A stretch of DNA of 64,000 nucleotides from a virus (taxonomy: Duplodnaviria; Heunggongvirae; Uroviricota; Caudoviricetes), in the IMG/VR virus record IMGVR_UViG_2925891887_000001; one strand, written 5' to 3'. Below, piece by piece: positions 3,508 to 26,159 of the stretch. Position numbers and translations under genes: made by a program. The notes below the pieces were generated by a model, which ran no database searches, was not told the DNA's origin, and was given only the letters and a program-made list of their open reading frames with translations. How positions within the stretch are numbered: position 1 is the stretch's first letter; each line of letters opens with the position of its first letter.

Positions 3508-3569
3508 ATTGTGATAACCCAAGAGGCCCATGGATGGGCCTCTGTATGAGTTTAAAAGGATTTTAACCA

Positions 3570-3887
3570 ATGACCAAATTACTCGATCTCGATTCCATTC
3601 TGCCTCCGAAGAAAAGCATCAAATTTGGCGGTCAGGAATATCCCATCGTTGAAATGACGGTAGGTCTGTTCGTTTCCATCAAGCAGATGGAAGGCAAAGA
3701 TCTCATGAACATGTCTCCTGTTGAGCAAGTGACAGCTTATGCAGATCTGGTTCGTAAGGTTATCCCTTCAGTACCTGACGAAGTTCTTGAAAAACTGACT
3801 GTTCCGCAACTCCAGCAGATCTTCACCTTCGCTATGGAAGTGATTGATGAAGAAAACGAAAAAGCGGCTGGCGAAGGGGCAAAGTAA
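3570..3887 (+). CDS. tail assembly chaperone (gpG-like)
   Basis: 105-aa acidic protein between major tail and tape measure genes; AAGGA RBS. Confidence 0.65.
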   Translation: MTKLLDLDSILPPKKSIKFGGQEYPIVEMTVGLFVSIKQMEGKDLMNMSPVEQVTAYADLVRKVIPSVPDEVLEKLTVPQLQQIFTFAMEVIDEENEKAAGEGAK

Positions 3888-4237
3888 TTTCCCGCGATGA
3901 ATCCGGGACAAGGACCGTCTCAATAGATCTCGGATTCTATTTCAGTCGTGTAGTTGCTCACTACGCCGTGTCGCCATTAGAGCTACTGAACGTTCCTCTC
4001 ACGATGTTCTGGATGCTCAGTCGCAATATAGACCGTCTGCGTGCGGAAGAGGATGTCCGCAACTTACAAGTCGCTCGTGCGTCCCAGGCGGATGGCGAGG
4101 CTGTGAAGGCGTTCATGGAGGGTTTGCAACTCAGGATTGGAAGACCAGTCGTAACAGATAAAGTCTACGATCCAAGCCAGGATAAGGCAGACCCTGACGC
4201 CAAAGAGCAACTGATGCAAATATTTGGCAGAGGATGA
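3570..4237 (+). CDS. tail assembly chaperone frameshift product (gpGT-like), candidate -1 programmed frameshift near 3858-3863
   Basis: The -1 frame is open from 3851 (after TGA 3848-3850) to 4237 and overlaps the last 34 nt of the gpG-like gene; the A-run GAAAAAG at 3858-3864 allows a -1 slip on AAA. Confidence 0.45.
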
Positions 4238-4244
4238 CAAGGGA

Positions 4245-11545: not shown

Positions 11546-12126
11546 TTCATGTGCAGCTTGGCGGACCTATGGCTAAACATTTTGGTCGCCACTGGCATCT
11601 AAAGGTGCGCAATACAAAACAGGCTCTGGATTTAATTGAAGCCAACAAGCCTGGGTTTAAAGCATGGATGAAGCGCAATATCAAAACCTATGACAGTTAC
11701 CACATCCAGATCACCAATAAACAGGGCCACAAGTGGTCTGTTGACGAAAGTGAATATCAGATGATGGGGCAGTCTGACAACATTGCCAAAATCCGCATTA
11801 CACCTGTTCCGCGAGGAAGCGGTGGATCTGCTTTTGGGTGGTTTCAGACGGTAGTAGGGGCCGCTTTGTTGGTTGTATCGGCGGTAGTGATGCCTGCTTT
11901 AGCACCTCTCGGTTTGTCACTGATGATGGGCGGCATATCACAAATCATATCGCCGCAAGCCACTAACGAAAGTGTGAGACAGGCAGATAACTCGAACTCT
12001 TATTATTTCGACGGCCCTCAAAATACAGAAAACCAGGGCAACCCAGTACAACTTATCTATGGCGAGGAAATTCTGGTTGGCTCACAGGTTGTGAGTTCTT
12101 CAATCACGATTGACCAGCTAATGTAA
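11533..12126 (+). CDS. tail assembly protein I-like
   Basis: GTG start after GGGAG; hydrophobic C-terminal segment; gpI position between K and J. Confidence 0.6.
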   Translation: MSELVHVQLGGPMAKHFGRHWHLKVRNTKQALDLIEANKPGFKAWMKRNIKTYDSYHIQITNKQGHKWSVDESEYQMMGQSDNIAKIRITPVPRGSGGSAFGWFQTVVGAALLVVSAVVMPALAPLGLSLMMGGISQIISPQATNESVRQADNSNSYYFDGPQNTENQGNPVQLIYGEEILVGSQVVSSSITIDQLM

Positions 12127-12143
12127 ACAAGGATTTTTTGAAC

Positions 12144-15100
12144 ATGGAACAGTTCAAGAAGAAAAAGCTACCGCTGTTTATTGCCGGTGCGGGTGGTAAA
12201 AAAAGCAGCAAAAGCTCTAGTCGTACACCGGTTGAAGCCGACGATACCGTAAATTCTCGTGCAATGGCCGCTATCCTCGATCTTCTTGGGGAAGGGGTAA
12301 TTGGCGGCTTAGTAAATGGCGCAAGATCTATTTTTATCGACGATCTGCCGATTGTAAATGAAGACGGTTCCTCCAACTTCAGCGGAATCACATGGGATTT
12401 TCGCGACGGTTCACAAGACCAGACTCCAATGTCTGGCTTTGATTTCGTTGAAACGCCTAAATCCGTCAATATCCAGTTAAAAAAAACACATTATGTAACG
12501 GTTTCAATCGATAACGATGAAGCTGATCGGGTTCGTGTCATCATGAAGTTTCCTTCTTTGCGAAGCATAGATAAAAAAACTGGTGACACGAACGGTACGA
12601 CTGTTGAGTACAAGTTCCAGATAGCAAATGGCGACTCAACATTTGTAGATGTGGTCGCGGAAGGTGAAAAAAGCGTTGGCATTAAGCTAACAGCAAAGAA
12701 GACCGGCGTTTATTACCGTAGCTACGAGCTGAAGCTGCCTAAGCCTGGACGCGCATACAAGGTTCGTGTAGTCCGTATTACCGATGATAACAGTAGCCAG
12801 TATCTCTATAACGATACATGGGTGGATTCAATCGGGGAAATTGTCGATACACCGATGAACTATCCAAACTCTGTTTTGGTTGGATTGAAGGTAAACTCTG
12901 AGCAATTCGGCAGCACCATGCCATCTCGCTCTTATCTGGTGCGTGGCCTAAAAATTCGAGTACCTTCAAACTATAACGAGTCCAGTAACACTTACGCTGG
13001 GGTATGGGATGGCACTTTTAAGCTGTTGTCTTCTTCGAACCCCGCGTGGATTCTCTTTGATTTGCTGACCAATGCTCGATATGGCCTTGGTCAGTATGTG
13101 TCGGAATCTATGATTGACCTTGGCCAGTTGTACCAGATTGGTCGATATTGTGACGAAGAGGTCGATGATGGCTTTGGTGGCAAAGAGAAACGCTTTGCAA
13201 TCAATACGCAGATCACCAGTCGACAGGACGCATACCGGCTAATTCAGGATATTGCCGGAGCATTCCGCGGCATGGTGTTTTGGGCTGGTGGGATGGTTAA
13301 CATCATGCAGGATAGCCCATCAGATCCGGTAATGATGTTTACCAACTCTAACGTCAAAGATGGATTGTTTACCTATAAAGGTTCTGCGCGTAAAGATCGC
13401 CCATCCGTTGCGCTCGTAACCTACAACAACAAGGAGGACGGTTATAAGCAAAACATCGAGTACGTCGAAGATCAGGACGCAATGCGCCGTTATGGTGAGC
13501 GTAAAACAGAAGTCGTAGCATTTGGCTGTACAAGCCGAGGGCAGGCTCACCGAGTTGGTTTGTGGCTTTTATATACCGCCAGAATGGAGTCGGATGTAAT
13601 TACATTTACTGCCGGCTTAGACGCGTCATTTCTGATGCCTGGTGAAACCGTTCTGATTCAGAACAAATATCGCGCAGGCAAACGTAACTCAGGTCGAATT
13701 GTGGCGTTTACCAAAAACAGCGTCACACTCGATGCGCCTGTGTCGTTAGCCAAAGGCGGCTGCTTTATTCGAATACTGAATCAGGAAGGCAAAATCGTTG
13801 AACGCGATGTTCTTGAAACTGGCGAAAATATAACAAAAGTTACGTTTTCAAAAGCCCTGTCTTCGGCTGAAACGCCTGTTTTGAACGGCGTCTGGACTAT
13901 TACAGAACCAGACCTCGAACCTATGCGCGTTCGCATCGTTAACATCGCGCAGGGGGAAACGCCGGGTAGCTTTGACATCACCGCTGTTGAGAACAATCCG
14001 TCTAAATATGAGGCAATCGACAATGGTGCAACGCTGATCCCACAGAATACGACGGTATTGGACCCAACTTACTCCAAGCCATCTAATCTGCAAATCACTG
14101 AAGGGACTTATCTCTCAAGCCCGGGCAACCTGTCAGTAAAACTGACTGCAACATGGGAAGGGAAATCTCCAGAGTATTGGATCAGTTGGCGACGTTCTGA
14201 TGAAAACAATGTATCGAACTGGCAATCGGCGCGTGTAACCGAAGAGCAATACGAAATCGTTAATGTCGCGGAGAATGGACGCTACGACTTCCAGCTGTAT
14301 GCGGTTTCATTCAACGGTAAAAAAACAGAGATTATCAGTACCGTTTATCAGGTGTTGGGCACAATGACACCGCCGGATGCCCCAACGTCATTAACGGCCG
14401 TTGGAGACTATCGTAATGTGATACTGAATTGGGTTAATCCAGATTCGGTAGACCTTGATCACATTAATGTTTACGCATCCCAGACCAACAATCTGGATAC
14501 GGCGAAACTGATCGCAGAGTCTGCAAGCACCACCTTTACACATGCTGGTCTTGGGGATAGCGAAACGTGGTATTACTGGGTTCGAGCATCGAACAAGCGA
14601 GGTATGTTAAGTCCTCCGAACTCAAACTTGGGTACAGAGGCGACAACTCGCGATGTACTGTCGTTCCTGACTGGCAAAATTACATCTTCCGAGCTTGGTC
14701 AGGCTCTGCTTGAGGACATCAACAGCAAAGCCTCTCAAGAAGCAGTTGACGAGTTAAATGAGCATATCAACCAGAGCGTCGAATCTTTGGAGGGGGCGGT
14801 AAACGACGTTAAGGAAGATATAGCTGAATTAGATAAGCAGTTCAGCGATAACCTCGCGGATTTTGAAATAAAATTCAACGAGCGTAGCGATGCTTTGGAG
14901 AACGCACAAACCGAGCTTAAAGGTGAGGTTTCGGCAACGATCGACAAGGTCAATGAAGCGTTTGAAAAAATTGATGCTACTGATGCTGCAATTGTTGAAA
15001 TCGAAAACACCGTATCTGAACACGATAAAGCTCTCGCTAATACAGTCGAGGCAATAAAGGCTGCAAGAGATGAAGCGGCGGCTCTTATTGCTAAGGAAAG

Positions 15101-16871
15101 CGAGGCTCGTGTTGAAGGCGATGCTGCAAACGCTAAACAACTGGAAGTGTTGCAGTCAACGGTAGAGGAAAGCTCCGCTGCCGTTGAAGAAATGAAAAAG
15201 ACGGTTGCAGAGGTCGATCGTGCCAGTGCAGAACTGACTACGAACATTGAAGCGTTAGCTAAAACAAATATTGACCTGGCTCTTCGTCAAGATGAAGACC
15301 AGCACAAGCAGATGGTCAATAACGCGAAGATCGCAACAACACAGAAAACCTTTGCTGATGATATGTCCGCAATGGCCACGAAGGTTGAGGAAATTCGCGT
15401 AGAAATTGGCGAAGACATTAAGGCCAGTATTCTGGAAGAGTCCACCGCTCGTGCCGATGGCGATGAAGCGTTGGCAAAGCGTGTCACTCAGCTGCAATCT
15501 AAGTTTGAAGGAGATATCAGCGCGGCGATTAGTACAGAGCAGGAGGCTCGTACATCTGCCGATGAAGCTCTGACGACACAAATCACTCAGCTTGAGTCGA
15601 AAGTAAGCAACGATATCGTCGCAGCTATTAAGGAAGAGCAAGAAGCCCGAGCAACGGAAGATTCGGCTCTGGCAAGCCAGATCACCCAACTTCAGGCAAA
15701 AGTTGATGATGATATTTCTGCTGCAATACGCAGTGAGCAGGAGGCCCGAGCAAGCGGGGACTCTGCGTTAGCCAAACAAATAAACCAGCTTCAGTCAAAG
15801 GTTGACGGTGATATATCCGCTGCCATCACTCAGGAGCAGGAGGCCAGAGCAAGTGCTGACCAGGCGCTCTCACGAGAAATTAACAGCCTGCGAGCACAAA
15901 CCGGAACTGATATTGCCGCAGCGGTTGCTGTAGAGACAAAAGCAAGGACTGATGCCGATAGTGCATTGTCTACCCAGATTACGTCTCTTACAGCAAAAGC
16001 TAATGATCTCAAGGCGTCTCTTGCCAGAGAAACAACGGCTCGTGCAGATGGTGATACCGCTTTAACAAAAGAGGTTTCAAGTTTAAAAGCACAGACAGCG
16101 AAAGATATTAGTGCGGCCGTTGCAGTTGAAACGCAGGCTCGAACTGATGCTGACTCGGCGTTGTCGTCTCAGATCACCAAGCTGACCTCTCAATACAAAG
16201 AGGATATTAAAGCGGCTGTAGCAACCGAAACGAAAACGCGTACAGAGCAAGATGCTGCATTGGCGACTCAAATCACAAACTTAGAGTCTCAAACGGCAGC
16301 CAACATTTCCGCGGCGGTCACAACTGAAACGAAAGCGAGAACGCAGGCAGATAATGCTCTGAGTGGGCGAATCGATACTCTGAAAGCAGAGGTGAATGGA
16401 AATACCGCGACAATTCAACAGCAGGCAACAGCTATTGCTGATACCAACAAAAAAGTGTCAACCGCGTGGACGTTGAAAATGGAGACTTCAACGAGCGGAG
16501 GGCAGAAGTATGTTGCCGGTATTGCGCTTGGTATTGACACCACTGGGCTATCTCAGTTTTTGGTTCAGGCGGACAGGTTTGGTTTGGTCAACTCTGTTAA
16601 CGGGAAGATCACAACGCCATTTGTTATCGAAAACAGTATCGCCTATATGAATGGAGCGTATATCAAGGATGGCACAATCACCAATGCAAAAGTAGGCGAT
16701 CTGCAATCTACCAATTTTGTTAGCGGTAGATCTGGATGGCGGTTCGGCAAAAATGGAACGCTTGAGATCAACGGTAATAGCGGCGGCAATGGGCGATTGG
16801 TTATAAATGGTCAGCGGATTGACGTTTATGACGATAACAACGTCCTACGAGTAAGAATTGGCCGTCTGTGA
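12144..16871 (+). CDS. tail tip/host specificity protein J-like with long coiled-coil repeat shaft
   Basis: about 1575 aa; N-terminal region with gpJ-like features, then about 12 in-frame 31-32 aa repeats, C-terminal distal domain. Confidence 0.8.
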   Translation: MEQFKKKKLPLFIAGAGGKKSSKSSSRTPVEADDTVNSRAMAAILDLLGEGVIGGLVNGARSIFIDDLPIVNEDGSSNFSGITWDFRDGSQDQTPMSGFDFVETPKSVNIQLKKTHYVTVSIDNDEADRVRVIMKFPSLRSIDKKTGDTNGTTVEYKFQIANGDSTFVDVVAEGEKSVGIKLTAKKTGVYYRSYELKLPKPGRAYKVRVVRITDDNSSQYLYNDTWVDSIGEIVDTPMNYPNSVLVGLKVNSEQFGSTMPSRSYLVRGLKIRVPSNYNESSNTYAGVWDGTFKLLSSSNPAWILFDLLTNARYGLGQYVSESMIDLGQLYQIGRYCDEEVDDGFGGKEKRFAINTQITSRQDAYRLIQDIAGAFRGMVFWAGGMVNIMQDSPSDPVMMFTNSNVKDGLFTYKGSARKDRPSVALVTYNNKEDGYKQNIEYVEDQDAMRRYGERKTEVVAFGCTSRGQAHRVGLWLLYTARMESDVITFTAGLDASFLMPGETVLIQNKYRAGKRNSGRIVAFTKNSVTLDAPVSLAKGGCFIRILNQEGKIVERDVLETGENITKVTFSKALSSAETPVLNGVWTITEPDLEPMRVRIVNIAQGETPGSFDITAVENNPSKYEAIDNGATLIPQNTTVLDPTYSKPSNLQITEGTYLSSPGNLSVKLTATWEGKSPEYWISWRRSDENNVSNWQSARVTEEQYEIVNVAENGRYDFQLYAVSFNGKKTEIISTVYQVLGTMTPPDAPTSLTAVGDYRNVILNWVNPDSVDLDHINVYASQTNNLDTAKLIAESASTTFTHAGLGDSETWYYWVRASNKRGMLSPPNSNLGTEATTRDVLSFLTGKITSSELGQALLEDINSKASQEAVDELNEHINQSVESLEGAVNDVKEDIAELDKQFSDNLADFEIKFNERSDALENAQTELKGEVSATIDKVNEAFEKIDATDAAIVEIENTVSEHDKALANTVEAIKAARDEAAALIAKESEARVEGDAANAKQLEVLQSTVEESSAAVEEMKKTVAEVDRASAELTTNIEALAKTNIDLALRQDEDQHKQMVNNAKIATTQKTFADDMSAMATKVEEIRVEIGEDIKASILEESTARADGDEALAKRVTQLQSKFEGDISAAISTEQEARTSADEALTTQITQLESKVSNDIVAAIKEEQEARATEDSALASQITQLQAKVDDDISAAIRSEQEARASGDSALAKQINQLQSKVDGDISAAITQEQEARASADQALSREINSLRAQTGTDIAAAVAVETKARTDADSALSTQITSLTAKANDLKASLARETTARADGDTALTKEVSSLKAQTAKDISAAVAVETQARTDADSALSSQITKLTSQYKEDIKAAVATETKTRTEQDAALATQITNLESQTAANISAAVTTETKARTQADNALSGRIDTLKAEVNGNTATIQQQATAIADTNKKVSTAWTLKMETSTSGGQKYVAGIALGIDTTGLSQFLVQADRFGLVNSVNGKITTPFVIENSIAYMNGAYIKDGTITNAKVGDLQSTNFVSGRSGWRFGKNGTLEINGNSGGNGRLVINGQRIDVYDDNNVLRVRIGRL
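15440..16390 (+). repeat. in-frame tandem repeat region (about 12 x 31-32 aa units, EQEAR..D.AL..QI.QL.SKV..DISAAI) within the J-like gene
   Basis: Periodic repeat visible in the translation; nucleotide copies are diverged. Confidence 0.6.
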
Positions 16872-16964
16872 TGGTGGAAAAAAAATTTTATATCGGTAAA
16901 AATAGGTAGGTATATACTTAATGGCGGGCAAGGATAGCCCGCCAAATCAAGGAGCATATTCAAC

Positions 16965-19900
16965 ATGTGGTACAGGGAAGGTACTATCACATTTACACAG
17001 GGCAGCAATACTCTGGTTGGGGCAGGGACAGCCTGGAACGTAACAGCTAATGGTGTGTTGCCGGGGATGATCGTCATTGGCCCCGACAATAAGCTGTATG
17101 AGATCAAGCGCGTAACCAGTGATACGAACATTGTTCTCTCAGAACCTTATACCGGCGAAACTCAGTCTGAAGTTCCGTGCCGAATCATTACGACCTATGA
17201 AGGCGACTTAACACAGTTTAGCGCGCGCTTTACTGCGCTAATGTCGCGTATGTCGGCTGATTCCAAGTCCATACGCAGTTGGTTGACTGCGCTGGATGAG
17301 GTGACAATCGAGCGTGAAGACGGTACAGAAGTGACCGTTAAGCCGCTAATGCAGATCGTCAACGAGCACAACGAAAACGTTGAGTGGTATAAAAATAACA
17401 CTGACGCGATTGATGCTGCTGGCGACAAAGCTCGTGAGGCGGCGGCCAGTGCTGCCGCAGCAGCAAAAAGCGCCAATGCCGCTGGAGAAAAAGCCTCTCA
17501 AGCGTCTCAAAGTGCATCCGCTGCGGCATCCTCACAAAGTGCCGCAAGTGCGAGTGCAACTGCTGCGAAAAAATCTGAAACGAATGCTGCAGCGTCACAA
17601 AAATCTGCAGCCACTTCTGCATCCACCGCGACCACGAAGGCGTCAGAAGCTGCCACCTCAGCCCGGGATGCGGCGGCCTCAAAAGAGGCAGCGAAATCAT
17701 CAGAAACGAGCGCAGCCTCGAGCGCCAGTAATGCCGCTTCCTCGGCAACGGCGGCAGGAAATTCCGCGAAGGCGGCAAAAACGTCCGAGACGAACGCCAG
17801 GTCTTCTGAAACGGCAGCGGGACAGAGCGCCTCGGCTGCGGCAGGCTCAAAAACAGCGGCTGCGTCGTCTGCCAGTGCCGCGTCAACAAGTGCCGGGCAG
17901 GCCTCAGCCAGTGCCACCGCCGCCGGAAAATCGGCAGAAAGTGCCGCATCGTCTGCTTCAACTGCCACAACGAAGGCTGGCCAAGCCACTGAACAGGCCA
18001 GCGCAGCAGCGAGGTCTGCTTCCGCAGCGAAGACATCCGAAACGAACGCGAAAGCGTCGGAAACCCGTGCAGAATCCTCAAAAACGGCAGCCGCATCGTC
18101 CGCCAGTTCGGCGGCGTCATCGGCATCATCGGCGTCTGCTTCAAAAGATGAGGCGACCAGACAGGCGTCAGCAGCGAAGGGCAGCGCCACGACGGCATCC
18201 ACGAAAGCAACAGAGGCGGCAGGCAGTGCGACGGCAGCATCTCAGAGCAAAACTGCTGCTGAATCCGCTGCGACCCGTGCGGAAGCTGCTGCTGATCGTG
18301 CTGAAGAGATTGCCGGTGCAGTTGCGATGGAAGACGCAAGCCTTACAACTAAAGGTGTTGTGAAACTTAGCAGTGCTGTCGACAGCACCAGTGAATCGCT
18401 GGCCGCAACGCCAAAAGCAGTTAAAGCAGCCAATGACAATGCGAATAGCAGGGTGCCATCTAACCGAAAAGTTAACGGTAAAGCACTGACTGCGGATATC
18501 AAATTAACGCCGAAAGATATTGGTACTTTAAATTCAGTAACGATGTCTTTCTCTGGCGGGGCAGGGTGGTTCAAACTGGCTACGGTTACCATGCCACAAG
18601 CGAGTTCCATCGTTTACATCGCATTGATTGGTGGCGCTGGTTACAACGTCGGCTCCCCACATCAGGCAGGCATTTCAGAACTGGTTCTACGAGCAGGCAA
18701 TGGAAACCCCAAAGGGATTACAGGTGCTTTGTGGAAGCGTACAGCTGTCGGATTAACGAATTTCGCCTGGATCAACACATCCGGCGATACATATGATATT
18801 TACGTTGAGATTGGCAATTATGCGACTCGTGTAAATATCCATTGGGATTGTACTGCAAATGCGACAGTTTCTATTTATACCTCGCCAACATATTCAGCGA
18901 GTAAGCCTTCCAGCGTTACCGATGGTGTTGTTTATACGATGTATAGCACACATCAGAAACCGACGCCGTTAGATATTGGAGCACTGCCAACAACCGGAGG
19001 AACAGTTTCAGGTCCGTTGTCTGTTACAGGTGGATTAACTGGTTCATTGAATGGTAATGCAAGTACAGCCACGAAATTGCAGACGGCAAGATCTATCGGT
19101 GGAGTTGTTTTCGACGGTTCTGCAAATATTAACCTTCCAGGTGTAAACACTACGGGTAATCAGAACACCACTGGTAATGCTGCAACTGCTACAAAACTTC
19201 AGACTGCAAGAAAAATATCCGGTGTTCCATTTGATGGTTCTACTGATATCACTTTAACCGCTGCGCATGTTGCCGCTTTCGCAAGAAGGGCAACAGGGTC
19301 ATATGCGGATGCTGATGGTGGCGTGCCGTGGAATGCTGAATCTGGTGCTTACAATGTAACTAGAACAGGCGACACCTATATTCTTGCCAACTTTTATACC
19401 GGTGTAGGTAGTTGCCGGACCCTGCAGATGAAGGCGCATTACAGAAATGGAGGTCTGTTCTACCGTTCCTCAAGAGATGGCTATGGTTTTGAAAGTGGTT
19501 GGGAGCAGGTTTACACGACTGGATTTATGCCTCAGCCGGCTGATATAAACGCGCCAACCGCTGCCGCTGGATGGTTAAATAGTGGTAACGGAACGGCATT
19601 TACGACTGCTCAATTTATAACTTGGCTAAATAATCAGGGGGCATTTACAAACAAACATTGGATCGCACGGTGCTCATGGACTTACGCCAACAATAATTAT
19701 ATAGACGACACTGGTTGCGGTAGGATCGATCTATCTGGTTCCGTGATTGAGGTGTTTAGTAATAAGGCAACAAGCCACTACACTATTCGTGTTACAACGA
19801 CAACAACATCGGGTCATGGTGGTGTTAACAATGCGGAATTTATTTATGTGTACAATGGAAGTGATTATGCACCAGGCTGGCGTCGTTCTTATAACACTAG

Positions 19901-21263
19901 AAACAAACCAACAGCTTCTGATGTAGGAGCATTACCGCTTTCAGGTGGCACATTATCTGGAGGGTTAACATCTTCTGGTGAGATCATTTCAAAATATGCA
20001 AATGGTTTCCGCATTGCTTACGGTAAGTTTGGGTTCTTTATCCGTAATGATGGGGTGAACACATATTTCCTGCTAACAGCATCAGGAGACACATTAGGTT
20101 CATGGAACGGTTTGCGACCTATTACAATTAATAATACCAGCGGTGCTGTATCAATTGGTAATGGACTAAATGTGACTGGTGGCGTAAATGGTAGTTTGAA
20201 CGGTAATGCTTCAACAGCTACGAAGTTGCAAACAGCGAGAAACATCAATGGTGTTAAGTTTGATGGTTCAGGCGATATCAATATTAATACATTGGTATCT
20301 CGTGGCCGAGTTACGGCGTTAAGCGGCTCTACTCAAGGCACTGCTGGCATTCAAATGTATGAGGCGTACAACAATAGCTACCCGACCACGTATGGCAACG
20401 TATTGCACATGAAAGGTGCGAGTGCTGCTGGTGAGGGCGAGTTGCTTATTGGCTGGAGTGGTACGAGCGGTGCACATGCGCCAGTTTTCATTCGCTCACG
20501 AAGAGATAACACAGGTGCAGCATGGTCAGCGTGGGCGCAGGTATATACCGCTAAGGATTCAATCCCTGGTGTGAATACAACTGGTAATCAGAACACTACT
20601 GGTAATGCCGCAACCGCCACAAAATTGCAGACAGCAAGGAAAATTGCTGGTGTGGCGTTTGATGGCTCTGCCGATATAACTTTGACTGCGGCTAACCTTA
20701 ATGCTTACACGAAAACAGAGGTAGCAAACCTTCTAAGTTCCTATGCAAGCAGATCATCACTGACAGGCTATAGTGGCAACCTGGATATTGTTGCTGAAAC
20801 ACTGGTTGTCAAATCAGGCGGTAGTGGAGGGTTTGCTATATGGGATATTGGCACAACTACTAGCGGTGCCAATATGTACATTGATCCAAACCCAGGTATC
20901 AATACAGTTTGGCGTTCAACGTCTTCAAGGCGCTATAAAAAGGATATTGAAACATTACAAGATCGATATGCTGATGAACTTTTGTCATTAAGACCTGTTT
21001 GGTATCGTTCAATTTGTCGAGGTGACCGAAAGGATTGGGGGTATTACGGCCTTATTGCTGAAGAGGTTGGTGAGATTGCCCCGCAATATGTCCATTGGCG
21101 TGAACCAACAAATAATGATTCTCCAGAAGATATTTCCTCAAATGGTATGGTCGCTGAAGGAGTGATGTATGAGCGTTTGGTTGTACCACTCATTTATCAT
21201 ATTCAGCAATTGACCAAAAGGGTTGAGGAGCTTGAAACGAAGTTAAATTCACCTAAAGAATAA
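16965..21263 (+). CDS. tail fibre protein with Ala/Ser-rich low-complexity region, four phage-fibre repeat modules and C-terminal S74-type intramolecular chaperone domain
   Basis: AAGGAG RBS; repeated ATKLQTAR.I.GV.FDGS.DI.L modules; C-terminal segment containing SRRYKKDIE typical of the auto-cleaving chaperone domain. Confidence 0.85.
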   Translation: MWYREGTITFTQGSNTLVGAGTAWNVTANGVLPGMIVIGPDNKLYEIKRVTSDTNIVLSEPYTGETQSEVPCRIITTYEGDLTQFSARFTALMSRMSADSKSIRSWLTALDEVTIEREDGTEVTVKPLMQIVNEHNENVEWYKNNTDAIDAAGDKAREAAASAAAAAKSANAAGEKASQASQSASAAASSQSAASASATAAKKSETNAAASQKSAATSASTATTKASEAATSARDAAASKEAAKSSETSAASSASNAASSATAAGNSAKAAKTSETNARSSETAAGQSASAAAGSKTAAASSASAASTSAGQASASATAAGKSAESAASSASTATTKAGQATEQASAAARSASAAKTSETNAKASETRAESSKTAAASSASSAASSASSASASKDEATRQASAAKGSATTASTKATEAAGSATAASQSKTAAESAATRAEAAADRAEEIAGAVAMEDASLTTKGVVKLSSAVDSTSESLAATPKAVKAANDNANSRVPSNRKVNGKALTADIKLTPKDIGTLNSVTMSFSGGAGWFKLATVTMPQASSIVYIALIGGAGYNVGSPHQAGISELVLRAGNGNPKGITGALWKRTAVGLTNFAWINTSGDTYDIYVEIGNYATRVNIHWDCTANATVSIYTSPTYSASKPSSVTDGVVYTMYSTHQKPTPLDIGALPTTGGTVSGPLSVTGGLTGSLNGNASTATKLQTARSIGGVVFDGSANINLPGVNTTGNQNTTGNAATATKLQTARKISGVPFDGSTDITLTAAHVAAFARRATGSYADADGGVPWNAESGAYNVTRTGDTYILANFYTGVGSCRTLQMKAHYRNGGLFYRSSRDGYGFESGWEQVYTTGFMPQPADINAPTAAAGWLNSGNGTAFTTAQFITWLNNQGAFTNKHWIARCSWTYANNNYIDDTGCGRIDLSGSVIEVFSNKATSHYTIRVTTTTTSGHGGVNNAEFIYVYNGSDYAPGWRRSYNTRNKPTASDVGALPLSGGTLSGGLTSSGEIISKYANGFRIAYGKFGFFIRNDGVNTYFLLTASGDTLGSWNGLRPITINNTSGAVSIGNGLNVTGGVNGSLNGNASTATKLQTARNINGVKFDGSGDININTLVSRGRVTALSGSTQGTAGIQMYEAYNNSYPTTYGNVLHMKGASAAGEGELLIGWSGTSGAHAPVFIRSRRDNTGAAWSAWAQVYTAKDSIPGVNTTGNQNTTGNAATATKLQTARKIAGVAFDGSADITLTAANLNAYTKTEVANLLSSYASRSSLTGYSGNLDIVAETLVVKSGGSGGFAIWDIGTTTSGANMYIDPNPGINTVWRSTSSRRYKKDIETLQDRYADELLSLRPVWYRSICRGDRKDWGYYGLIAEEVGEIAPQYVHWREPTNNDSPEDISSNGMVAEGVMYERLVVPLIYHIQQLTKRVEELETKLNSPKE

Positions 21264-21323
21264 ACAACTTCAATCGGGGCTGGAGCTAAACCAGCCCCTG
21301 CTTAAAAGTATAAGGATATATTT

Positions 21324-21578
21324 ATGAGCTATGGTGCACAGGTTTGGTCGCCATCAAGACAGGAGATGGTCAATGCGTTGGCCCCTGTTTATTACCTCGA
21401 TTATTTTACTCCCTCTGGTTCAGGAAGTAGAACATATGAGGTTGAGGCGGGATTGGGAATCGACTATTACATAATGGACGTAACCAATGGAAAGTACACA
21501 AGTCTTACGGTTTCTGGAAATACCATTTCGTGGTCTGGAGCTAGTGGTAATTTAAACATATTGGTTTTTCAAAAATAA
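21324..21578 (+). CDS. hypothetical protein (tail fibre-associated)
   Basis: 84-aa ORF after the tail fibre gene; lower GC than flanking genes. Confidence 0.5.
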   Translation: MSYGAQVWSPSRQEMVNALAPVYYLDYFTPSGSGSRTYEVEAGLGIDYYIMDVTNGKYTSLTVSGNTISWSGASGNLNILVFQK

Positions 21579-22186
21579 TGTACGGAAGCAAGATATATCG
21601 ATCTGACGGGAAGGTCTGGATGTCTCCTTCTTTGTCTCCTATCGTTTTTCAGAGAAAGCAGGTTGTTTCTTTGTCCGGCGGGACAGAGTTTAACACCAAA
21701 ATATCTCCAGATCGTTCACCGATTATTTTTGTTGCCTATTCGAAAGCTGTTTCATTAATAGCCAACAGAATAGTGCGTAACAACCAGGTGATTTACAGTT
21801 TCGGAGGTCAGGGTAGCGACTCTAGTGCCACGATATACGTATTTTCGAAAGGTATAGCCAAAAAAGAAACTTGGGGCATGAGTTTTTTCAATGCACAAGG
21901 GGAGGAAATCTATAATACGGCAAATATCCCACTTTCATTTACCTTTCTTAATAATACGGAGTGGAACAGCTCTGGAGGGCATGTTTTTGATTACCCTCCA
22001 GCGATAATCCCAACATATGCGAATGTGTTCGCTGTTCCAGTACCGGGCGGAGCCATGACAATGGTTTATGGATATGCGGCATATGGAAATACTGTTAGCT
22101 CGATATTCGTAAACCAACTTAATGGCGGCCATAGTTTTAGCGTAAATGGCAGAGTACCGGTAATAAATAGAAATCTGTATAACTGA
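21578..22186 (+). CDS. hypothetical protein (tail fibre-associated)
   Basis: 202-aa ORF with start/stop overlap to the upstream gene. Confidence 0.5.
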   Translation: MYGSKIYRSDGKVWMSPSLSPIVFQRKQVVSLSGGTEFNTKISPDRSPIIFVAYSKAVSLIANRIVRNNQVIYSFGGQGSDSSATIYVFSKGIAKKETWGMSFFNAQGEEIYNTANIPLSFTFLNNTEWNSSGGHVFDYPPAIIPTYANVFAVPVPGGAMTMVYGYAAYGNTVSSIFVNQLNGGHSFSVNGRVPVINRNLYN

Positions 22187-22193
22187 TGAGTAG

Positions 22194-22427
22194 ATGATGA
22201 AAAGATTATTTCTAACAATAGCTGTTGTTCTCTCTCTTACTGGCTGCCAGAAATTGCCGACACCTATATGTTACGGTGAGGCTATCATTGGTGGACAGGA
22301 GACAGTCATACCCATATATGCTGTTAAAAAAGTGAACGACTATACCTTATACAAAGCGGGTAGCATCTATAACTGGCGATGGGTAGGAGTAGGTGCTTTC
22401 TCATCAGTCCGTTGCAATGCTGAATGA
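22194..22427 (+). CDS. small lipoprotein, candidate Cor-like superinfection exclusion protein
   Basis: Signal peptide with lipobox LTGC; 77 aa; located between tail fibre genes and the lysis cassette. Confidence 0.45.
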   Translation: MMKRLFLTIAVVLSLTGCQKLPTPICYGEAIIGGQETVIPIYAVKKVNDYTLYKAGSIYNWRWVGVGAFSSVRCNAE

Positions 22428-22508
22428 TAGGTAAGTACACACCTACAACAAAAGGGTGAAATGTGATATAAATCCGCCATCCCGATTTGACTTTTCATGG
22501 AGGAAAAC

Positions 22509-22832
22509 ATGTCGAACGAGATGGCGGGCGTTACAACAGAGCAAGTTGAGCGTATTGCCGCGATCGTTGCTCGGGAGGTTGTTGGCAAATTAGGTAAAGA
22601 GCTACGTGAAGAAATTGGCCAGGAGGTCAACGATCAGCTGAAAACCTACTTTGGTGATATGACCCCGGCGCAACATAGTATTCAACACTCCAACCTGGAC
22701 AAACTCCTTAACCGGTTAGATTCCATCTCAAGTGGGTTCTTTGGCGGCATTGTTTCTAAAATAACGTCGTTCATTATTACCGCACTGCTTTTGGGGTTAG
22801 CCGCGTATGGCGTAAAAAATGGACTGCAATAA
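22509..22832 (+). CDS. membrane protein, holin candidate
   Basis: GGAGG RBS; single C-terminal hydrophobic helix; first gene of the putative lysis cassette. Confidence 0.4.
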   Translation: MSNEMAGVTTEQVERIAAIVAREVVGKLGKELREEIGQEVNDQLKTYFGDMTPAQHSIQHSNLDKLLNRLDSISSGFFGGIVSKITSFIITALLLGLAAYGVKNGLQ

Positions 22833-22845
22833 CAGGAGATCAAGG

Positions 22846-23538
22846 ATGAAGACTCCGAGAGGTATTCGTAATAATAACCCCGGTAATCTTGATAAAGGAT
22901 CACCGTGGCAAGGTCTGGTTGCGAATCCAGACGAACCGCGCTTTTGCACGTTTAAAGACCCTGTTTGGGGGATTCGTGCACTGGCGGTGACTCTAATTAC
23001 CTACCACGACAAGCGTCGCGCAAAAGACGGCTCAAGTATCGATACCATTCGTGAAGTTATTGAACGTTGGGCACCGCCGAATGAAAACAACACTGACGCC
23101 TACATTAATGAGGTGTCTAAAGCCGTTGGTGTAACCGCAGACATGATTATCGATCTGCATGATTACGACATTCTTCGACCTTTGGTTGAGGCAATCATTC
23201 GCCATGAGAATGGGCGAGGTCCGCTAAAAACGCTGAACACCTGGTATGCGGCAGAAGTTATTGAGGAAGGTCTGCGTCGAGCTGGCGTCGTTAAGCCGGT
23301 GAAAACCGTGAAGGCTGTTCCTGTAACTAAAGAAACAGCAGGCGCAACTGTTACAGCAGGTATTGGTCTGGCGCAGCTGGCCGATGTTATGCCGCAGGTT
23401 TCCGCTGCTATGGATAAAGCACAAGGTCATATCTCTAGCGGGGATACAGTACGCATCATCTTCGGTATTGCCACTATTGTTGTGGCTGGATTTATCGCCT
23501 GGTCGCAGGTAAGAAGACACCAGAAAGGGATGGTCTAA
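22846..23538 (+). CDS. lysis cassette protein, candidate endolysin with C-terminal membrane anchor
   Basis: CAGGAG RBS; conserved-looking RGIRNNNPGN N-terminal motif; sits between holin candidate and spanins; C-terminal hydrophobic helix. Confidence 0.35.
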   Translation: MKTPRGIRNNNPGNLDKGSPWQGLVANPDEPRFCTFKDPVWGIRALAVTLITYHDKRRAKDGSSIDTIREVIERWAPPNENNTDAYINEVSKAVGVTADMIIDLHDYDILRPLVEAIIRHENGRGPLKTLNTWYAAEVIEEGLRRAGVVKPVKTVKAVPVTKETAGATVTAGIGLAQLADVMPQVSAAMDKAQGHISSGDTVRIIFGIATIVVAGFIAWSQVRRHQKGMV

Positions 23539-23539
23539 T

Positions 23540-23791
23540 ATGCTAGGCAGCCTGATGACAAAGCTAAAAGTTGCTTTGATTACGCTGGCTGCCGTTCTTT
23601 TCGTTCTGGTCGGCGCTTACACGATGGGCGGAAATGCGGCGCGACGAGCAATGGAAGAGAAGGCAAAACAGGAAGACAGAAAACGACTTCAAAGCACAGT
23701 GGATGTCAAAAATGAAACGGTTAATGAAGTGCGGCAAAAAGATGCCTCTGGTGTTCATCGCGAGCTGTTTGATAAATGGGTGCGTGATTAA
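23540..23791 (+). CDS. i-spanin (Rz-like)
   Basis: N-terminal transmembrane anchor followed by a charged helical periplasmic region; an o-spanin candidate is embedded in the +1 frame. Confidence 0.6.
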   Translation: MLGSLMTKLKVALITLAAVLFVLVGAYTMGGNAARRAMEEKAKQEDRKRLQSTVDVKNETVNEVRQKDASGVHRELFDKWVRD

Positions 23792-23939
23792 GACGCAGGC
23801 TCCAGGCGTGCTATTCTGCGATGCTGCAAATCCTATCTATGTGAGTAGAGAGGATTTTATGACTGAGGAAACGGAGCGACAGTTGCTTATCCACAATACG
23901 ATAGGTGAAAGGCTGTGTGAGTGGGGGCACCTGAACTGA
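23703..23939 (+). CDS. o-spanin (Rz1-like lipoprotein), partly nested in the i-spanin gene
   Basis: Short signal peptide with lipobox (FIASC) in an ORF that begins inside the i-spanin gene in another frame; start uncertain (ATG 23703 or 23712). Confidence 0.5.
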   Translation: MSKMKRLMKCGKKMPLVFIASCLINGCVIKTQAPGVLFCDAANPIYVSREDFMTEETERQLLIHNTIGERLCEWGHLN

Positions 23940-24163
23940 GTCGATGATTGATGAGTGGTCTCAGTTTACCTTTTATCCTAAAGATGGCATCTTCACTCAT
24001 ATACACGCCTGTTCACTCAAGCTCATGTTGAATCATTTAGTAATTTGATGTAGATTTATTAGGCATCCACGTAAGTGGGCACATACAGGCTACGCATCCT
24101 CGTAGCCTTCAACCCCGAGAGGGGTGCCGCAATGACACTTGTGTTAACGGCTAAGGTGGATAT

Positions 24164-24583
24164 ATGCTAAATTATCATGACAATACGCGTTCTATGCAGA
24201 CGATCCGCACCAATACTGCGGTCATCGACAGCTTTCCTATGCGTATTCACAACAGTGAAGACGCAGTAGAAGTGCGACGTATGTTGTGCCGTGAATCAGC
24301 TAACCGCCAGCACTTCATCGTCACTTTTAAGAGCGATGTGGCGCGTGCCGAAAAGATCTCTAATTCTACGTCACTGGTTAAACCGTTGGCCGAGGTTGTC
24401 GCTAACGGTAAACGAACCTCTTTTGTTTTAGATGTTGCTGAACAATATCCTGACTTGAAGTGTTTAGATCGTGATATTTCTTCACGAATCAAACAAGTTG
24501 TAGAGTCTTTTATGAAGAAATTCTGTAAAATCGATGATATGGAACCATCAACGGCACAGAATACTTCATGGCACCATCTCTAA
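24164..24583 (+). CDS. hypothetical protein
   Basis: 139-aa ORF, first gene after a 220-bp non-coding gap following the lysis genes. Confidence 0.5.
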   Translation: MLNYHDNTRSMQTIRTNTAVIDSFPMRIHNSEDAVEVRRMLCRESANRQHFIVTFKSDVARAEKISNSTSLVKPLAEVVANGKRTSFVLDVAEQYPDLKCLDRDISSRIKQVVESFMKKFCKIDDMEPSTAQNTSWHHL

Positions 24584-25341
24584 TTGGTCAGGCGAACAGA
24601 TTAATCCCTGAAATAGAAGACTACAGCAAGGTCTTGTCTGAAATGCCGAGAGCGACGAGAATTATCGCTCTCGGTGAGTTCTATTTTATCTCCCGAGGTT
24701 TCGATCTAATTCGATTTACCGAATACGAGCTTGTTGATTCGGCCTATGAACGCTGTATTGTTGGCGAGTGTCTTGAGTCATGTGATCCTGATTACCAAGA
24801 GCAGGAAGTTAAGCGACTCAAACGTGCTGGTTACACACCTCTTGAGATAGGAGCAGAAATTGAATCCTACAAGTTGCATGTGGGGCAGCCAGTCCAAACA
24901 GTCTTCCGCGTGGCCTACTGCGAGTTTCCAATCAAGGATAAATCTGGAGTAAAAGTCAGCGCCAAGCAGATTAGAGGGGTTTTTACTCATGCTGATTATA
25001 TGGGATTAGGCATCGCAAGTTTTGCTTACCTTTATCTCGTAGATAAGTATCAGTACTTGGTTTGCGATACGTTACAGACGGTAAAAGGCGCAACTCTTTG
25101 GGCTGTGAGTATGCGCAAACATGGACTGGTCGAAATTTACGATACGAAGAACGAAAATTTTATAGAGGAATTGGGTGAGGATGCCTGTGGCGTAAGTGGT
25201 TTTATTCCGTGGGATATCGGTAAGTCTGACGGAGGCCAGATGCGAAGACGTGAAGAGTGGGGGACTAATAAAATCAATCTCACCCCAGGTGCTTGTACTC
25301 ATATAGTGAACATTCTGACTAAACGATCTATGAATCAATAA
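24568..25341 (+). CDS. hypothetical protein
   Basis: 257-aa ORF followed by a hairpin plus T-run terminator. Confidence 0.55.
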   Translation: MAPSLIGQANRLIPEIEDYSKVLSEMPRATRIIALGEFYFISRGFDLIRFTEYELVDSAYERCIVGECLESCDPDYQEQEVKRLKRAGYTPLEIGAEIESYKLHVGQPVQTVFRVAYCEFPIKDKSGVKVSAKQIRGVFTHADYMGLGIASFAYLYLVDKYQYLVCDTLQTVKGATLWAVSMRKHGLVEIYDTKNENFIEELGEDACGVSGFIPWDIGKSDGGQMRRREEWGTNKINLTPGACTHIVNILTKRSMNQ

Positions 25342-25342
25342 A

Positions 25343-25366
25343 CCCGCTACGGCGGGTTTTTTGTTA
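25343..25366 (+). terminator. Rho-independent terminator
   Basis: CCCGCTACGGCGGG hairpin followed by TTTTTTGTT. Confidence 0.7.
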
Positions 25367-25490
25367 TTAAGCCCCCCCTATGTACCTATCATTAAACCTT
25401 TACACCGCAGCCGTAGGCATTTAGGCTATATCACATATAAGAAAACAAGTTGTTTCAGACGATAATTATATACGCAAAGGGAACTCTCCA

Positions 25491-26159
25491 ATGACCAAGA
25501 TCTTTGTGGTTGGCGGCACAAAGGGCGGGCCTGGCAAATCCACCGTTGCCCAGCAAATTGCCGTTTGCCTGAAAGTCAAAAAGAAGAAGAAGGTTTATAT
25601 TACCGATATAGATATTCAGCGCACGACAACGAGCTGGTGTGAAGACCGTCGACAGAACGAAGACCTTGAGCTGATTCCTTTCGCATACGTTCAGGATGAC
25701 ATCATTAAGCACCTAAAATCGCTTCAGGGTAGAGCTGAGTTTGTAGTGGTAGATGCTGGTGGCTTCGACTCCGAAATTCAGCGACAAGCGATGCTGATGG
25801 CTGACGTTATCATTATCCCGCTGCGTCCTAAGCGTCGTGATTTGAAATCTTTACGTGACATCGATCCTATTATCGACAATGTTCGCAATGTAAACGATAA
25901 AGTGAAGGTCCGCGCGGTCATGAACCAGTGCCCGGCTTTGCCATCACAAGTGTCTCGCATTCTGGCGGCTAAAGAGATTGTTGAGACGTTTGGCATCGAG
26001 TCTGCGCCAGTCAATCTATATAACCGCAACGTCTATGATGATGCGGAAGAGTCTGGTCGTTCTATCTTTGAAATGACCGGTAGCGAGCGCGACAAAAAGG
26101 CGGAAGCCGAGTTTGAAGAATTTGTAGATTATCTGTTGAGTCTGGAGGAAGAAGAATAA
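25491..26159 (+). CDS. parA: ParA-family partition ATPase
   Basis: N-terminal deviant Walker A (GGTKGGPGKST), about 220 aa, followed by a small overlapping gene. Confidence 0.75.
   Translation: MTKIFVVGGTKGGPGKSTVAQQIAVCLKVKKKKKVYITDIDIQRTTTSWCEDRRQNEDLELIPFAYVQDDIIKHLKSLQGRAEFVVVDAGGFDSEIQRQAMLMADVIIIPLRPKRRDLKSLRDIDPIIDNVRNVNDKVKVRAVMNQCPALPSQVSRILAAKEIVETFGIESAPVNLYNRNVYDDAEESGRSIFEMTGSERDKKAEAEFEEFVDYLLSLEEEE

Follow-up and report, generated by a model that had tools for sequence, protein, structure and literature searches.

Four units of what is probably a widespread ~40-residue shaft repeat mark cassette borders in the tail fibre of an SSU5-like phage-plasmid

The tail-fibre gene found in the analysed window (the whole stretch of 64,000 nt of viral DNA) encodes four copies (R1–R4) of a short conserved motif, and the explanation that accounts best for the whole, which we consider probable, is that these belong to a shaft repeat of ~40 residues that is widespread in tail fibres, and mark the borders of the fibre's cassettes. 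The source element is an SSU5-like phage-plasmid, and the partners of its fibre include lambdoid Stf genes. A J-like tail-tip gene (12138–16871) is the upstream neighbour of the fibre gene, and small ORFs and lysis genes follow downstream on the same strand. A near-identical gene is already public in annotated SSU5-like E. coli phage-plasmids: in E. coli plasmids of ~110 kb, a gene annotated as "tail fiber protein" shares 99.9% nt identity with it, and phages CMS-2020a and Cyrano are 96–97% identical to it over part of its length only. The features of the gene are listed in Table 1.

Table 1. Coordinates of the tail-fibre gene and of the features recognised in it (positions refer to the window).
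Feature	Position	Strand	Basis or detail
Tail-fibre gene, 1432 aa	16965..21263	+	ORF list, PHROG tail-fibre families
Conserved N-proximal joint, aa 455-500 (...GVVKLSSAVDSTSESLAATPKAVKAAND...)	18327..18464	+	aligns to tail fibre protein S residues 105-156, 8ju3/5yvq
Repeat unit R1, aa 685-724, type A leader LSVTGGLTGSLN	19017..19136	+	core TATKLQTAR 19065-19091; breakpoint aa 700/701
Repeat unit R2, aa 725-767, type B leader PGVNTTGNQNTT	19137..19265	+	core TATKLQTAR 19185-19211; breakpoints aa 740, 749, 755
Two globular domains after R2, aa 771-868 and 860-984	19275..19916	+	PDB sequence match to 8ju3 residues 324-421, 201-324
Gp34_trimer-type domain, aa 956-1055	19830..20129	+	Pfam PF21446, E = 3.5e-28
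Repeat unit R3, aa 1068-1108, type A leader LNVTGGVNGSLN	20166..20288	+	core TATKLQTAR 20214-20240; breakpoint aa 1092/1093
~92-aa beta-rich domain between R3 and R4, aa 1109-1200	20289..20564	+	at unit-unit linker position
Repeat unit R4, aa 1201-1243, type B leader	20565..20693	+	core TATKLQTAR 20613-20639; breakpoints aa 1196, 1225, 1260
Distal stretch of mature fibre, aa 1244-1319	20694..20921	+	within variable cassette D
S74-type intramolecular chaperone / auto-processing domain, aa 1320-1432 and stop codon	20922..21263	+	Pfam PF13884

A repeat finder detected four in-register copies of a 79-nt core (19053–19131, 19173–19251, 20202–20280 and 20601–20679), which are 66–78% identical to the reference copy, as well as a longer repeat pair (19137–19287 and 20565–20715) with an identity of 75%. 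In the translation, the core GNA(A/S)TATKLQTAR.I.GV.FDGS..I starts at aa 697, 737, 1080 and 1213. Thus, the four motif copies recorded in the first-pass annotation are real and lie where it had placed them. Self-alignment likewise revealed elevated identity: the best pair of 27-aa windows within aa 455–1432 is identical at all 27 positions (PGVNTTGNQNTTGNAATATKLQTARKI), while in shuffles of the same sequence (n = 100) the best pair had on average 9.7 and at most 12 identical residues. Two subtypes can be told apart by their leaders, which read L(S/N)VTGG..GSLN in subtype A (R1 and R3) and PGVNTTGNQNTT in subtype B (R2 and R4). The segments at 19139–19266 and 20568–20695 had been described as encoding near-identical modules, which holds (40 of 45 residues are shared by R2 and R4, and 31 of 45 by R1 and R3). 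In the DNA, R2 and R4 agree at only 105 of 135 nt (78% of bases) and use different codons at 20 of their 40 identical residues. The longest exact nucleotide run between units within the gene is 14 nt. R1 and R2 form a tandem with a spacing of 40 aa (120 nt), the spacing of R3 and R4 is 133 aa, and R3...R4 reads as R1-R2 with an insertion between ...ININ and PGVN. Tandem Repeats Finder reported no DNA tandem repeats in 12000–21500, because the copies are too diverged in DNA. The statement that each copy precedes a distinct globular segment is correct for three of the copies (R2, R3 and R4); R1 is the exception, being followed directly by R2.

The search with phmmer found the unit in 5233 representative protein clusters at E <= 1e-3 and in 1509 at 1e-10, with up to 17 matched stretches per protein. 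The top 148 proteins carry 3–14 unit copies, most often spaced by exactly 40 aa (288 spacings), and the 133-aa spacing of R3 and R4 was seen 11 times in other proteins. The 444 phage records with the unit include P1/P7 S, P2-like phages, T-even gp37, lambdoid Stf, and phages of Acinetobacter, Aeromonas and Pseudomonas; the host genera of phages with the unit in their fibres are Escherichia, Acinetobacter, Pseudomonas, Aeromonas and Xanthomonas. The consensus of the unit is GNAxTATKLxTARxINGVxFDGSAxI, followed by the linker LPGVNxxGNQNTT. All four copies fit GNAxTAxKLxTARxIxGVxFDGSxxI, the consensus being drawn from 95 diverse instances, and the 40-residue period and the LPGVNxxGNQxT linker of the arrays are found in the fibre as well. 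The invariant alignment columns of the fibre are those of the unit, the nine-residue core being invariant. Pfam and NCBIfam scans of the units and of proteins with 10–16 copies returned no family, and a very common fibre repeat, present in >5000 protein clusters, is unmodelled in these protein-family databases. The Phage_fiber_2 (PF03406) or gp34-gp12 alpha-beta repeat was rejected as the identity of the units, which have no Pfam match at E <= 10; the gp34 repeat, a motif different from the unit, is described as combining a conserved Gly with a beta-strand and a central helix that starts with an S/T-P motif (PMC5537660). The full-text literature search for strings such as ATKLQTAR gave nothing relevant.

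The single-sequence PDB search with R1 and R2 yielded chance matches only and was insufficient, so that solved chains were reached only by the unit profile. The latter matched, at E ~1.5e-4, the PhiM1 fibre gp47 (8vbx residues 312–357) and, in phage L, the spike at the C-terminus of the decoration protein Dec (PDB 6e3c residues 96–134, NAETADKLSTARTITLTGAVTGSASFDGSANVTIETT; E = 1.5e-4; PMC6449081, PMC11398494). The Dec spike makes nearly all of the trimer contacts, and is an intertwined trimerisation element that is unfolded in monomers; a beta-helix model and an antiparallel beta-barrel prediction compete for its fold (PMC11398494). Unlike the fibre, Dec carries the unit only once, with an insertion of 7 residues, on an OB-fold capsid-binding domain. 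By analogy, each unit of the fibre may require trimerisation in order to fold, giving an intertwined beta segment, and would keep the three chains in register and space the globular domains as its homologue in Dec suggests. The plan of the fibre may then be read as a tandem pair, R1-R2, and a second pair, R3 and R4, with the ~92-residue domain placed at the unit-unit linker. The AlphaFold2 monomer prediction of aa 1064–1330 from a 38-sequence alignment was poor (mean pLDDT 49.9).

The globular domains between R2 and R3 match the P1/P7/Mu-type tail-fibre protein S and T4 gp34 (8ju3, 5yvq, 4uxe, 5nxf and 9x3r; E = 7e-64 to 2e-20), the PDB matches of the Gp34_trimer-type domain being to protein S (5yvq) and T4 gp34 (4uxe, 5nxf, 9x3r). 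The two domains that match 8ju3 stand in reversed order in the fibre. P1/P7 S also has the 40-residue unit; none of the five solved chains showed a sequence match to the unit itself.

Mosaicism was analysed in 120 homologues by two-state segmentation of pairwise alignments, which was used instead of gapped BLASTP since the latter fused blocks of high and low identity and thereby masked the breakpoints. Switches of identity lie at aa 700, 740, 749, 755, 1092, 1196, 1225 and 1260, and the aa 1092/1093 breakpoint in R3 was found in 18 homologues. Five of the 24 distinct breakpoint positions, which come from related, non-independent proteins, lie at edges of the invariant TATKLQTAR cores (binomial P = 2.6e-4); the segmentation, with a resolution of ~9 residues, puts a switch at the edge of the invariant block adjoining the true crossover, and for breakpoints counted anywhere within the units P is 0.05 only. 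In close relatives, the flanks are 97–99% identical right up to the core and divergent within a few bases. The identity of pECAZ162_2 to the window is complete up to 19204 and that of the lambdoid phi458 nearly so up to ~19208, both points lying in the R2 core codons, the homology of CMS-2020a stops at 20236 in the R3 core codons, and the match of Cyrano begins at 20562, at R4. Relatives differ by whole cassettes, with identity switching within the TATKLQTAR codons or at their edge: CMS-2020a has an uninterrupted R3-R4 tandem where the ~92-aa domain sits here, and Cyrano has a hybrid unit whose head is of R3 and whose tail is of R2; after it stands the domain that comes after R2 here. The number of tandem units varies (2 or 3), and the alternative C-termini are S74, gp37_C or Collar. 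The comparison with related fibres therefore bore out the earlier suggestion of mosaic breakpoints, as the fibre is mosaic and its junctions coincide with the modules.

According to these alignments, the exchangeable cassettes comprise aa 497–740, 750–980, 1093–1196 and 1261–end. The left border of cassette A is the N-proximal joint, a motif distinct from the R1–R4 unit, with breakpoints at aa 487/496 in 31 homologues. By eye, the joint resembles the gp34-repeat description in PMC5537660, which the units do not; PF03406 is precomputed on homologues. Cassette B (aa 750–955/980), of low identity in homologues, makes up most of the globular domains after R2, and the Gp34_trimer-type domain comes with a small variable patch (aa 1031–1063). 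Cassette C consists of the R3 tail and the ~92-aa domain, for which four strands were predicted with low confidence (pLDDT 55–76). Of the 120 homologues, 57 diverge from aa 1261 and continue into other C-termini (PF12604 gp37_C or PF07484 Collar); the distal stretch that precedes the S74 domain is presumed to be part of the fibre tip.

Junctions of this kind could arise when co-resident phages or prophages cross over at corresponding units, which would give in-frame, fold-compatible chimeras, and these may be the ones that survive selection. The internal homology had been taken for a recombination substrate, which agrees with exchange between phages, where the junctions lie at corresponding units, but not with exchange within the gene: ordinary homologous recombination between non-corresponding units is unlikely because DNA identity is low (66–78%, exact runs of <=14 nt, half of the identical residues recoded). 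DNA homology at the unit and selection for a viable junction are both candidate contributors to the junctions, and either may weigh more. It is rather unlikely that the unit is an uncurated autonomous trimerisation fold and a universal tail-fibre "splice site", with the invariant 27-nt core as a true recombination hot spot joining cassettes and even non-fibre proteins such as Dec; if it were, splicing at TATKLQTAR would become a general rule for chimeric fibre engineering.

Selection could also act alone, with illegitimate or microhomology exchange taking place anywhere, only chimeras joined in the conserved structural unit forming a working trimer, and the DNA of the unit having no mechanistic part. 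This is unlikely, although the low nucleotide identity between the units and their differing codons would fit it, as would Cyrano, which has the same domain elsewhere at only ~74% nt identity, so that the shuffles are old. Sandmeier is also said to have held in 1994 that such chimeras are not easily explained by homologous recombination. However, near-identical flanks that extend up to the core are the expected trace of a homology-guided crossover between corresponding units. The two models are mutually compatible.

The first-pass annotation had regarded the repeats as duplicated receptor-binding modules, whose similarity within the gene serves as a recombination substrate for swapping host-range domains. 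The modules are indeed near-identical in protein and coincide with the mosaic junctions; nevertheless, this reading is very unlikely, as the units are the most conserved, invariant stretches of the fibre, are common to phages of several genera of unrelated hosts and to a capsid decoration protein, and have the variation between them. The low within-gene DNA identity and short exact matches also count against it, as does, weakly, the absence of an R2xR4 deletion product among the 120 homologues, a list that favours high coverage. Its receptor-binding part is thus largely refuted by the invariant columns, the spread over host genera and the variable segments between the units. The variable cassettes presumably carry the specificity, and a tempting misreading is thereby corrected: the near-identical repeats would be the scaffold, and the divergent cassettes between them the host-range determinants.

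It is extremely unlikely that a recent internal duplication is kept uniform by gene conversion, a candidate rejected because the differing codons at 20 of the 40 identical R2/R4 residues indicate no homogenisation, or that a Din-family invertase exchanges the segments as in the P1 C-segment or Mu G-segment, although the unit is present in the invertible Sv' segment of P1/P7 and a Pin invertase lies next to the fibre genes of the lambdoid relative phi458. Fibres switched by an invertase (P1 Cin, Mu Gin, p15B Min) were rejected as a model, and the gene, unlike P1/P7/Mu-type S, lacks an invertible segment: no noteworthy inverted repeats were found in 12000–26000, the units neither contain nor adjoin a AAACCNNGGTTT-type crossover site, and downstream there is no alternative fibre segment in inverted orientation. 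The window contains 5 AAACCNNGGTTT-type sites, a number compatible with chance (shuffled sequences have 2.0 on average, and 9 of 100 have at least 5).

Beyond the repeat, the fibre is an ordinary case of known tail-fibre mosaicism, the motif-mediated form of which is textbook knowledge. Haggard-Ljungquist in 1992 and Sandmeier in 1994 reportedly described such mosaicism, mediated by conserved motifs, in tail-fibre genes. As in those fibres, short conserved motifs flank variable segments (which here would be the specificity-bearing ones), junctions lie at the motifs, and segments are common to related and unrelated phages. For T-even gp37/gp38, conserved-motif mosaicism is credited to Tetart, Desplats and Krisch (1998), as cited in a passage of PMC10879196 (ref. 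25). In contrast to the T-even adhesins, the motif here is the 40-residue GNAxTATKLxTAR...FDGS unit and not the His-box (GxHxH), no HxH motif being visible in the fibre translation, and the element is an SSU5-like phage-plasmid with lambdoid Stf partners. For phage engineering, the TATKLQTAR cores at 19065, 19185, 20214 and 20613 offer junction points in an SSU5-like phage-plasmid fibre, and cassettes are naturally joined at those cores, including ones shared with lambdoid prophages at 95% nt identity.

The S74-type chaperone domain that had been noted at the end of the gene was confirmed by a PF13884 match above the cut-off (27 bits vs 22; aa 1320–1376, profile positions 1–57) and a putative dyad, Ser1320/Lys1325 (SSRRYKKDI), five residues apart at the domain start. 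Based on family membership, the domain would fold the mature fibre and then trim it, an autoproteolytic release that would depend on trimerisation. The C-terminal ~113-aa domain, the Pfam match and the Ser-x4-Lys dyad are shared with endosialidases, T5 pb1-type L-shaped fibres and MYRF; compared with these systems, the score is modest, cleavage is a prediction, and the stretch to be folded (aa 1244–1319) is short and uncharacterised. The Ser/Lys dyad is known for endosialidases and for MYRF S578/K583 (PMC3742443), with the same i, i+5 spacing as here. In addition, the domain has a weak match to the L-shaped tail-fibre chain 8hqz, in which tSsrrYKKDI is aligned to tSgieYKKDV.

The tail fiber ORF is matched by PHROG tail fiber families over its full length. 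Its DNA is 99.9% identical to a gene annotated as "tail fiber protein" in non-mobilizable E. coli plasmids of ~110 kb, e.g., pEcFELIX526.1. The phages CMS-2020a and Cyrano (~108 kb) match part of the gene at 96–97% identity, and Salmonella phage SSU5 matches its first 513 nt at 78%. Based on these identities, the window is assigned to an SSU5-like phage-plasmid, of which it represents a part. In addition, 1.75 kb of the gene (window 17489–19237) is common to the locus of phage phi458 (positions 3001–4749; 95% nucleotide identity), which reflects a fairly recent exchange between the phage-plasmid and an integrative lambdoid phage. In the phi458 locus, IS1 and a Pin invertase adjoin the fiber genes. 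In the gene tables of two near-identical plasmids (L005 and L006), the "tail fiber protein" CDS starts at a Met equivalent to aa 455, while the first 1.36 kb (Ala/Ser-rich; window 16965–18326, aa 1–454) are empty; the PLSDB table omits some genes, so this gap may stem from the table, not from the original record. The ORF is unbroken from 16965 in the window, and the same is seen in the annotation of phage Cyrano. Across the Ala/Ser-rich part (17195–18610), the minus strand and other frames contain several long ORFs of up to 327 aa, which seem to be a side effect of the repetitive, GC-rich codon composition rather than genes.

Features of the tail fiber gene and its downstream neighbors
Feature	Position	Strand	Match or remark
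Tail fiber ORF, 1432 aa	16965–21263	+	Directly after 1577-aa J-like tail-tip gene
Two domains of the solved tail fiber S/S' chain (8ju3), in the order opposite to 8ju3	aa 771–868, 860–984 (window 19275–19916)	+	PDB sequence match
Gp34_trimer domain	aa 956–1055	+	Pfam, PDB; also matches tail fiber protein S (5yvq) and T4 gp34
~92-residue beta-rich domain	aa 1109–1200		Between R3 and R4
S74 intramolecular chaperone domain	aa 1320–1432		Pfam PF13884
Small ORF, 84 aa	Within 21324–22427		PHROG "outer membrane protein"
Small ORF, 202 aa	Within 21324–22427		PHROG "membrane associated protein", moron category
Small ORF, 77 aa, start MMKRLFLTIAVVLSLTGC	Within 21324–22427		Resembles lipoprotein signal

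The repeat finder revealed a 79-nt core that is present four times in register, at 19053, 19173, 20202 and 20601, as well as a longer repeat pair (19137–19287 and 20565–20715; 75% identity). At the protein level, the core GNA(A/S)TATKLQTAR.I.GV.FDGS..I begins at aa 697, 737, 1080 and 1213 of the fiber in the four ~40-residue units, designated R1 to R4 from the N- to the C-terminus, and both the coordinates and the consensus of the first-pass annotation were correct. R2 and R4 have 40 of 45 residues in common, 27 of them consecutive, and R1 and R3 have 31 of 45, with a leader unlike that of R2/R4; the best 27-residue match in the shuffled fiber sequence had at most 12 identities. The statement that each module precedes a globular segment does not apply to R1, which is followed directly by R2 at a 40-aa spacing, with no globular segment between them.

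In a database of 1.84 billion representative proteins, 5233 clusters matched a 42-residue query (aa 1207–1248) at E ≤ 1e-3, of which 1509 reached 1e-10, with up to 17 matched stretches in single proteins. The best 148 proteins have 3–14 unit copies each and a modal unit spacing of exactly 40 residues (288 spacings). The "leader" seen in R2 and R4 is the linker LPGVNxxGNQxT, by which units are connected in other proteins. By tblastn against phage genomes, the motif was found in 444 records, with carriers including S of P1 and P7 (also in the invertible Sv' segment), P2-like fibers, gp37 of T-even phages (T6, RB9 and others), lambdoid Stf, and phages of Acinetobacter, Aeromonas, Pseudomonas and Xanthomonas. 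Given these copy numbers, the 40-residue spacing and the wide spread among phages, four units per fiber are normal for this repeat. Pfam scans, including proteins with 10–16 units, gave no model for the unit, and the NCBIfam scan of this fiber gave no match. The unit is distinct from the Phage_fiber_2/gp34 alpha-beta repeat; by eye, the published description of that repeat (PMC5537660) agrees with a separate motif at aa 455–500. Three cluster representatives (P0123, P0138 and P0141) consist mostly of 40-residue units: 10–17 stretches match, and the 40-aa period is kept exactly up to nine times in a row. Neither P0123 nor P0138 receives any Pfam annotation.

Residues 324–421 of 8ju3 correspond to aa 771–868, and residues 201–324 to aa 860–984; the domain order is permuted between this fiber and the 8ju3 chain, which may itself be a fusion construct. 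The ~92-residue domain lies precisely where one unit is linked to the next (...ININ, then the insert, then PGVNTTGNQNTT...), and the R3–R4 region reads like an R1–R2-like tandem pair interrupted by this domain. In CMS-2020a, the tandem pair found at this position is uninterrupted; other proteins also show the 133-aa spacing of R3 and R4. The inserted domain and the one after R2 are weakly similar in a terminal stretch, F(Y/I)RS.RD...W.QVYT (E = 2e-4 in a pairwise comparison). The S74-type chaperone proposed for the end of the gene was confirmed by PF13884 (27 bits; cut-off, 22), and Ser1320 and Lys1325, a putative dyad, are spaced i, i+5 like the S74 catalytic dyad.

For 120 homologues aligned to the fiber, each alignment was segmented into high- and low-identity states. 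Identity switches recur at aa 487/496, 664, 700, 740, 749 and 755 and, further on, at aa 955–980, in a patch at 1031–1063, and at 1092, 1174, 1196, 1225, 1260 and 1317. These positions define four exchangeable cassettes (about aa 497–740, 750–980, 1093–1196 and 1261–end), every one of which has at least one border inside a unit; relatives with alternative C-termini carry S74, gp37_C or Collar domains there. Of the 24 distinct breakpoints, five coincide with an edge of one of the four invariant TATKLQTAR cores (binomial P = 2.6e-4), and eight fall anywhere in the units (P = 0.05). At the DNA level, identity of pECAZ162_2 to the window ends at 19204, with divergence beyond, lambdoid phi458, which matches 1.7 kb at 95% identity, departs from it after ~19208, and homology of CMS-2020a stops at 20236, i.e., all three junctions lie within core codons, in agreement with the protein breakpoints. 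Furthermore, the number of tandem units varies among relatives (2 vs. 3), and Cyrano has a hybrid unit, composed of the R3 head and the R2 tail, before the domain that follows R2 in this fiber. These results support the view that the units are the joints at which phages exchange cassettes.

Such exchange may proceed by homology-guided crossover between corresponding units or reflect selection for fold-compatible junctions. The first-pass interpretation of the repeats as duplicated receptor-binding modules that provide recombination substrates holds for joints between phages, where cassette borders and DNA junctions fall at the units, but not for the receptor-binding label, as the invariant alignment columns are those of the units. 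Within the gene, the units are poor substrates: their DNA identity is 66–78%, exact matches extend over at most 14 nt, and half of the identical residues are encoded by different codons. For the same reasons, both recent duplication and homogenization by gene conversion were ruled out. Invertase-based switching of the fiber is not supported, since neither inverted repeats nor crossover-site-like sequences were found at the units.

A profile built from 95 diverse units matched two solved chains, the C-terminal spike of the phage L capsid decoration protein Dec (6e3c, residues 96–134) and the PhiM1 tail fiber gp47 (8vbx, residues 312–357), both with E ~1.5e-4. The Dec spike makes nearly all of the trimer contacts and is unfolded as a monomer; beta-helix and AlphaFold antiparallel beta-barrel models of it compete, the latter favored by circular dichroism (PMC11398494). 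By analogy to this trimer-contact element, we infer that the unit may be a trimer-dependent shaft and registry element. Our own monomer structure prediction was of low quality (pLDDT 50).

Exchange of tail fiber segments at conserved motifs was reportedly described by Haggard-Ljungquist in 1992 and Sandmeier in 1994. It is established by Tetart et al. 1998, as cited in PMC10879196. The present fiber adds one more case, from a phage-plasmid whose fiber sequence was already public. The additions are modest: the junctions are narrowed to a nine-residue core, R3–domain–R4 can be read as an interrupted tandem pair, and a very common repeat is described that has neither a curated family nor a settled structure.

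Three small ORFs lie between the fiber gene and the lysis genes. In phage Cyrano, a holin follows within ~200 nt after the fiber gene, and the three ORFs of the window may therefore be an inserted moron block. Upstream, the C-terminal third (~15000–16400) of the J-like ORF (12138–16871) contains a long series of degenerate protein repeats (...DISAAI..EQEAR...D.AL..QI.QLQ.K...), for which Tandem Repeats Finder reported nothing at the DNA level. The series looks like a coiled coil, which is unusual for lambda-J-type tail-tip proteins.
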